This document shows positions 35,408-35,548 of a stretch of 64,000 nt of DNA, piece by piece. The notes beneath the pieces were generated by a model, which saw only the letters and a list, made by a program, of their open reading frames with translations, was not told where the DNA came from and ran no database searches. The stretch's first letter is position 1. Each line of letters opens with the position of its first letter. This DNA comes from a virus, in IMG/VR virus record IMGVR_UViG_3300042923_001201, positions 30,473-94,472 of that record; one strand, given 5' to 3'. The position numbers were made by a program, and so were the translations under genes.

Positions 35408-35548
35408 TTAAGATACATTATTTTTAAACTTTTGACGATTGTATGAGCCTTTACCTTTATCATTTTGTTTAACTTTAGTTGCAGCATTGAAATTCCAAAC
35501 TTGCCTTGTTTTTGTCATTTCGCCTATTTTCTTCAGTTTCTTTTTCAT
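35408..35548 (-). CDS. 46-aa ArfA-like alternative ribosome-rescue factor (not in ORF track)
   Basis: [46 protein letters not shown]; KGKGSYxR motif of ArfA; RBS TAAGGAG. Confidence 0.6.
   Translation of the reverse strand: [46 protein letters not shown]

Follow-up and report, generated by a model that had tools for sequence, protein, structure and literature searches.

[quoted passage not shown] In ArfA, the residues Q27-E30 form a strand that augments the sheet of RF2 domain II/IV and recruits RF2, followed by the presence of a basic segment that binds the 16S rRNA in the mRNA entry channel (PMC8012679). ArfA cut to 40 residues was found to be inactive, and the A18T variant binds without giving release, so that binding and activation are separable (PMC8012679). 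The N-terminal half of ArfA becomes ordered against the RF2 switch loop, and activation depends on this half. In B. subtilis, the small Gram-positive rescue factor BrfA (YqkK) is also RF2-dependent and has a non-stop mRNA as its template; it contains a basic C-terminus, which lies in the mRNA channel, and a strand by which the RF2 sheet is augmented (PMC6881298). Because of their non-stop design, arfA and brfA are both under negative control by trans-translation (PMC8012679; PMC6881298). In the published surveys, ArfA was found only in the beta- and gamma-proteobacteria, and for the Gram-positive bacteria BrfA alone is listed, from a few species of Bacillus (PMC11633108, PMC6881298, PMC8012679). 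A ribosome-rescue function in phages has a precedent in the tmRNAs encoded by mycobacteriophages and Bradyrhizobium phages (PMC12656738).

The locus compared here with these systems lies in a window of 64,000 nucleotides, which covers positions 30473-94472 of a virus record that is 94.5 kb long, is rated complete and probably stems from a soil metagenome. The phage genome was found to contain 34.8% GC and six tRNAs, whereas no tmRNA was found in it. The candidate rescue gene of this phage encodes a small protein, unlike the phage tmRNAs, which act by RNA-based tagging.

The 46-residue ORF and its surroundings

The ORF was found on the minus strand at 35408..35548 as an intact frame of 46 aa from ATG to a TAA stop. 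A Shine-Dalgarno sequence AAGGAG (35554..35559, minus strand) precedes the ATG by 5 nt and overlaps the TAA with which the 54/57-aa ORF before it ends. The encoded protein has a pI of 10.7, with 14 K+R against 2 D+E residues, and contains a string of 17 residues that had been pointed out in the initial annotation; the basic character of the ORF and its good ribosome-binding site, described there as well, were confirmed. A translation of the whole 94,472-bp genome in all six frames contained the pattern KG[KR]G[SA]Y.R a single time, and the pattern was absent from each of 200 shuffles. An identical 46-aa protein is already present in a predicted-protein collection, and at least one gene caller has thus found the ORF, which is a real phage gene. 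The monomer model (AlphaFold2) contained no stable fold (pLDDT 65, pTM 0.14), and the peptide is predicted to be small, basic and unstructured. Free ArfA is likewise disordered.

The 5′ boundary of the unit is marked by the intrinsic terminator of the upstream thioredoxin gene (35779..35798, minus strand), which contains an 8-bp stem with five GC pairs followed by a T-run. Directly behind it, a sigma-A-type promoter-like site, TTTACA-17-TAATAT with a TG, was recognised at 35743..35771 (minus strand) by its match to the consensus and heads the unit. Promoter-like sites were found in this AT-rich stretch at chance density (9 against 7.1 +/- 2.5 in shuffles), and the promoter at the head of the unit is therefore no more than plausible. 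The first small ORF of the unit (35558..35731, minus strand), of 54 aa with the ATG at 35722 or of 57 aa with a GTG, lies between this site and the ArfA-like ORF, which is therefore the second gene of the unit, in agreement with the order that had been proposed. Another promoter-like site, TTTAAA-17-TATAAT, located just upstream of the ArfA-like ORF (35565..35593, minus strand), is possibly a chance occurrence. The neighbouring small ORFs, including the 54/57-aa ORF, gave no match in Pfam and PHROG. An ORF of 97 aa located just downstream (34974-35267, minus strand) contains two CxxC pairs (CPIC...CCKC) and is zinc-ribbon-like, again with no Pfam or PHROG match.

The genes around the ORF were found to encode homologues of GyrB and GyrA, the DNA polymerase III alpha subunit and RecJ, along with a C5-methylase-like and a thymidylate-synthase-like gene. 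RtcB, an ATP-dependent DNA ligase, a DnaB-like helicase, a class II ribonucleotide reductase and NAMPT are encoded farther away. A gene at 3092-4546 (plus strand) contains a glycoside hydrolase family 26 domain fused to PA14 and may encode a phage polysaccharide depolymerase. No match was found for the locus in a megablast search against cultured phages. A sister phage of 94.7 kb, rated complete and with a GyrB 64% identical, was found to retain the methylase-thioredoxin-...-gyrB gene order, with different small genes in the gap. Neither an ArfA-like gene nor RtcB was found anywhere in the genome of the sister phage, and the ArfA-like gene is therefore an accessory gene. The gap between thioredoxin and gyrB is a variable slot (L054:2493-4000 in the sister phage, 34800-35800 in the window) that contains three unrelated ORFs (137, 107 and 74 aa) in the sister phage and four or five small ORFs in the window phage.

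The segment common with ArfA

ArfA (PF03889) was the only Pfam match of the phage protein, with an E value of 7.6e-5 and 22.5 bits over the profile positions 25-41 (17 of 44). The HMM comparison that the initial annotation had suggested thus returned ArfA and nothing else, but with a score under the gathering cut-off of 25.5 bits. The cellular cousins scored 18-25.5 bits with a similarly limited cover of the profile, and eight of ten relatives matched Pfam ArfA, the best at 1.3e-6. No match for the ArfA-like protein was found in NCBIfam. In hhalign against 15 Neisseriaceae ArfA sequences, the alignment had a probability of 96.1% and an E value of 3.5e-9 over 21 columns, of which 12 positions match. 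The residues 24-44 of the window protein were aligned with the residues 28-48 of ArfA, at the same N-terminal offset and in proteins of the same size. The profile matches in the PDB were ArfA chains only, at E about 1e-3 over 15 residues, and these chains carry the 15-residue sequence that had been quoted for E. coli ArfA. The conserved 15-residue core of ArfA, located about 25-30 residues from the N-terminus, was found in the window protein.

The ArfA-like core of the phage protein, delimited by hhalign and by the PDB ArfA chains, comprises the 19 residues 24-42 (35423..35479, minus strand) and contains an equivalent of the RF2-docking strand followed by the KGKGSY loop and a basic tail. The shared segment corresponds to the recruiting and channel-sensing part of ArfA, because it includes the equivalents of the Q27-E30 strand and of the basic segment. 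Judged by these profile comparisons, the resemblance of the core to ArfA is statistically real at the family level.

The N-terminal half of the phage protein (23 residues) contained no detectable similarity to ArfA. A forced extension of the hhalign alignment into this half had zero confidence and lowered the score from 46.4 to 37.0, and no recognisable counterpart was found for the N-terminal region of ArfA (conserved KGxIxDNA...A18...L-F) that faces the RF2 switch loop. The description of the protein as ArfA-like was upheld in this way for its core and not for its N-terminal half. After the equivalent of ArfA residue 40, the phage protein continues with nine residues, RQKFKNNVS, which include three basic ones and no Lys-His motif; this motif is present in E. 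coli ArfA and is also absent from the Neisseriaceae ArfA.

The phage protein thus resembles ArfA in its size, its basic charge and the core (14 residues following K/) at the same N-terminal distance. It differs in the N-terminal 23 residues, in the missing Lys-His, in a gene that contains neither a hairpin nor a non-stop mRNA design, and in its origin from a Firmicutes phage, whereas ArfA was found in the Proteobacteria only (PMC11633108, PMC6881298). With BrfA it has in common the character of a small Gram-positive rescue factor with a basic channel tail and an RF2 strand, which for the phage protein is a prediction from sequence. BrfA differs in that it has no sequence match to the family profiles, neither of which brought up the BrfA chain (PDB 6SZS) among its PDB matches at E<=10, and in its N-terminal helices, which contact the 50S subunit. 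A complex prediction of the family with B. subtilis RF2 had a score of 0.09 and returned no answer, and it speaks neither way.

Cellular relatives and their gene design

With the single sequence, a word-indexed protein search matched only the protein itself, and an exhaustive search was required. The exhaustive phmmer search was found to contain 10 representative clusters at E<1e-3, the nine others having E values of 2e-6 to 8e-4. A profile of the relatives matched 225 proteins, most of them from Peribacillus, Bacillus, Cytobacillus, Neobacillus, Brevibacillus and Paenibacillus, and matched the window protein at E 2.5e-18. The family spans the Bacillaceae, the Paenibacillaceae and some Clostridia, and its members are located on chromosomes, megaplasmids and large phages. 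Many members have been auto-named 'alternative ribosome rescue factor ArfA' by the NCBI pipeline, with the evidence code IEA on the one record that was checked; the ArfA label is thus already in use for the cellular cousins in database pipelines. No published description of a phage-encoded ArfA-like protein or of a Firmicutes ArfA-like family was found in the literature search. The initial annotation had set the phage gene against the unrelated BrfA of B. subtilis; the protein is not isolated, however, and has full-length kin in a widespread ArfA-like family of the Bacillaceae and Paenibacillaceae.

The proteins named ArfA by NCBI in these two groups, such as WP_207169179.1 of pAD3 and the proteins of Peribacillus, Neobacillus and Paenibacillus polymyxa, are 50-75% identical to the phage protein over the full length and contain the family N-terminal motif IGEMTxxRxxW as well as the KGKGSY core. 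In an alignment of 40 relatives, the residues I8, G9, R15, K31, G32, Y36 and R38 were found to be invariant and the residues W18, T24, K33 and G34 nearly invariant. The window protein contains the N-terminal I-G-x-x-x-x-x-R-x-x-W, followed by the presence of the C-terminal K-G-x-x-x-Y-x-R, and matches the profile over its full length. Its residues 8-18 (11 residues; 35495..35527, minus strand) form the N-terminal signature of the Firmicutes and phage family. The closest relative, P0045 (45 aa), is 75% identical and has a string of 16 residues in common with it.

The three chromosomal copies examined were found in ordinary surroundings (genes for catalase, cupredoxin, SpoVAA and citrate synthase) and not in prophages. 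The distribution is patchy, with matches in 19 of the 67 genomes of the Peribacillus GTDB family. Other copies are present on a 220-kb B. velezensis plasmid (pAD3, WP_207169179.1) and on a 510-kb P. polymyxa megaplasmid. The pAD3 record (L060) is a non-mobilizable circle of 220 kb with 220 annotated features, its 8 kb shown encode almost only hypothetical proteins, and the record may represent a phage-plasmid or the genome of a jumbo phage. A partial copy at a second locus of Peribacillus butanolivorans (L021/L032) retains only 19 residues embedded in a longer unrelated frame and looks like a remnant or the product of a fusion. The copies of Peribacillus sp. RS7 (L016:8016-8174) and Cytobacillus purgationiresistens (L019:7980-8123) are interrupted by an in-frame stop that takes the place of a conserved residue in the N-terminal part, at the positions of the invariant Arg and of the Trp, and are probably pseudogenes. 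A tree of 101 family members over 43 columns was unresolved and paired only the phage protein with P0045, so that no donor lineage can be named.

These two chromosomal cousins with in-frame stops, the absence of the gene from the sister phage and its position in a variable stretch of small genes would all suit a frame that is open by chance, or the remnant of a gene in decay, without function in this phage. Such an origin is very improbable, as the intact frame is preceded by a strong ribosome-binding site, the protein is 75% identical to the 45-aa P0045 and matches the family profile at E 2.5e-18, and every invariant residue of the family is retained.

The gene design was compared by scoring the downstream hairpins with RNAfold (MFE and z-score). 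The phage gene was found to contain a plain TAA 27 nt after the core, and the 46 nt that follow the core (35389..35434, minus strand) contain no hairpin (MFE -0.8 kcal/mol, z +0.65). The initial annotation was right in placing the stop after the core with no hydrophobic tail, and the missing hairpin is a further feature of the same stretch. In canonical Neisseriaceae arfA, a hairpin of -51 kcal/mol (z -13) is present right after the core. The Peribacillus and Cytobacillus cousins, 50-60% identical to the phage protein over the full length, contain a terminator (stem followed by a T-run) that starts 0-4 nt after the core, with z -3.5 to -5.9; the Peribacillus terminator is bulged. In L012, L015, L037 and L019, the stop codon was found inside the hairpin loop, and L014, L016, L034 and L045 contain no stop before the terminator, the frame running through the hairpin and the T-run into a hydrophobic tail. 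The read-through tail KGCSFL... was seen at the Peribacillus chromosome loci L014:7953-8237, L016:8016-8174, L034 and L045, of which L012, L015 and L037 are close kin.

The cousins of the Paenibacillaceae and of B. velezensis pAD3 have ordinary stops, and the non-stop design is thus not universal in the family and can be recognised clearly in some of the cellular cousins only. No terminator was found after the core in the viral contigs L003 and L004. The in-frame terminator of the cousins parallels the non-stop arrangement known from arfA and brfA, which would be sensible only for a back-up rescue factor. The phage copies look deregulated, because they have no such terminator, the window gene ending in a plain stop with no hairpin, unlike several of the cellular copies named ArfA, those of Peribacillus and Cytobacillus. 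The constitutive character proposed in the initial annotation fits with this difference.

Phage relatives and proposed function

The window protein matched phrog_2701, a group of unknown function, at E 3.9e-6 over its full length (residues 1-44). This group includes Twort ORF219/gp108, FADO gp79 and vB_BcoS-136 gp12, and the Bacillaceae-type and loop-deleted copies that were tested fall in it, whereas neither the Clostridia-type variant nor canonical Neisseriaceae ArfA belongs to it. A loop-deleted variant was found in Twort (ORF219/gp108), DH2 and vB_BcoS-136 as well as in the B. subtilis phages FADO, PJN02, 2S-4 and PK-3. The proteins of Twort, FADO and BcoS-136 have the N-terminal motif and the overall size in common with the window protein, but a deletion of 3-4 residues removes the KGKGS that the window protein contains, and the ArfA model does not match them. 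Twort gp108 matched the Firmicutes profile at E 3.8e-11. FADO gp79 (L059:2456-5059) is located immediately upstream of ribose-phosphate pyrophosphokinase and nicotinamide phosphoribosyltransferase genes, whereas NAMPT of the window phage (55825-57594) does not adjoin the ArfA-like gene.

The Clostridia-type variant was found in viral contigs of 51-192 kb and in Oscillospiraceae MAGs (L004-L007, L017, L023 and L025). By eye, its N-terminal half looks closer than that of the Bacillaceae type to canonical ArfA, and its Pfam match is only two positions longer (profile 23-41).

The N-terminal motif is kept and KGKGS is lost in Twort, FADO and BcoS-136, and the hallmark of the phage branch is therefore the part that is not ArfA-like. 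This would agree with a different job for the protein, as a basic nucleic-acid-binding or virion-associated peptide in which the likeness to KGKGSY is a shared short motif or a convergence. The lysine-rich similarity to ArfA covers only about 21 residues, and the Twort gene is located in the tail module, between the tail-tube and the tail-assembly genes. We consider such a job unlikely, since the core matches at 12 of 21 positions with the same N-terminal offset in a protein of the same size, ArfA is the only match in both Pfam and the PDB, the motif is nearly invariant across the 40 relatives, and the terminator-in-frame design of the cellular cousins parallels that of arfA.

RtcB, which the initial annotation had named as a partner of the gene, is encoded at 6814..8007 (minus strand) of the window (Pfam RtcB E 2.1e-64; phrog_1075 E 4.7e-148), 28 kb from the ArfA-like ORF. 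It provides the context for a theme of RNA damage and translation repair and lies outside the ArfA-like gene proper. A complete viral contig of 239 kb contains a copy 66% identical to the window protein; RtcB is encoded in this phage as well, the only other complete one in which a full KGKGSY copy was found. RtcB was not found in the phages with the loop-deleted or Clostridia-type variants. The co-occurrence may hint at a link with RNA repair, in a sample of three to six genomes that is far too small to weigh.

On balance, this member of the Firmicutes ArfA-like family is probably a rescue factor that is made constitutively and depends on a release factor. This reading is preferred because the part that it shares with ArfA is the one critical for the mechanism, because the protein is full-length kin of cellular genes, some of which have a feedback of the rescue-factor type, and because the phage gene has dropped this feedback design. 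The points that count against a rescue function are the short tail without Lys-His, the Pfam score under the cut-off, the N-terminus unlike that of ArfA, the loss of the KGKGS loop in some phage relatives and the position of the Twort gene between tail genes. In the proposed mechanism, the basic tail and the KGKGSY loop would sense that the mRNA channel is vacant in a ribosome that has come to a halt at the 3′ end of its message, followed by the recruitment of a class-I release factor, probably RF2, by the TKVK strand, which would add a beta-strand as in ArfA. The nascent chain would then be hydrolysed and the ribosome recycled. With an ordinary stop and no hairpin, the peptide would be made whenever the operon is transcribed, free of the trans-translation feedback that is suggested for some cellular cousins. 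A plausible use would be to keep ribosomes available, alongside RtcB, when host mRNA decay or RNA-cleaving defences truncate many messages. The sequences show the gene, its place in the family, the similarity of the core and the different gene design. Ribosome binding, the recruitment of a release factor and its specificity, the rescue activity, the early expression and the role against host shut-off and RNase-based defences, the last three put forward in the initial annotation, are inferred.

The same features may be read as those of a plug without release, in which the ArfA-like tail binds the vacant mRNA channel and the N-terminus activates no release factor. A plug of this kind would compete with tmRNA-SmpB, so that phage proteins are spared tagging, or would park or silence host ribosomes. 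Only the channel-binding and strand-forming core is common with ArfA, and not the RF2-activating N-terminal half; ArfA(A18T) separates binding from activation (PMC8012679); and with the feedback hairpin lost, high and unregulated levels would be possible. A plug is nevertheless improbable, as the N-terminal motif is common to the phage protein and the cellular cousins over the full length, the non-stop design of some cousins is expected of a rescue factor and not of an inhibitor, and an unregulated ribosome blocker would harm the translation of the phage too.

A broader proposal, made tentatively from the sequences and held at somewhat less than even weight, is that the Gram-positive bacteria and large phages share a widespread ArfA-related rescue family, the phage copies of which, including the phrog_2701 kin in cultured B. 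subtilis phages and Twort-like Staphylococcus phages, are deregulated and would keep ribosomes free while host mRNA is broken down or RNA-cleaving defences attack, together with RNA repair by RtcB. This proposal contradicts the published view of an ArfA confined to the Proteobacteria. It is directly testable, as relatives are present in the cultured B. subtilis phages FADO and PJN02 and the genetics of ribosome rescue is established in B. subtilis. A review predicts that further small RF-recruiting factors are still to be found (PMC8012679), and the family, if the proposal is true, would be one of them. With the phage copy, from which the feedback design is missing, a virus would then be credited for the first time with a protein-based ribosome-rescue factor, and phrog_2701, a conserved unknown gene of the Twort-like Staphylococcus phages, would gain a candidate function.
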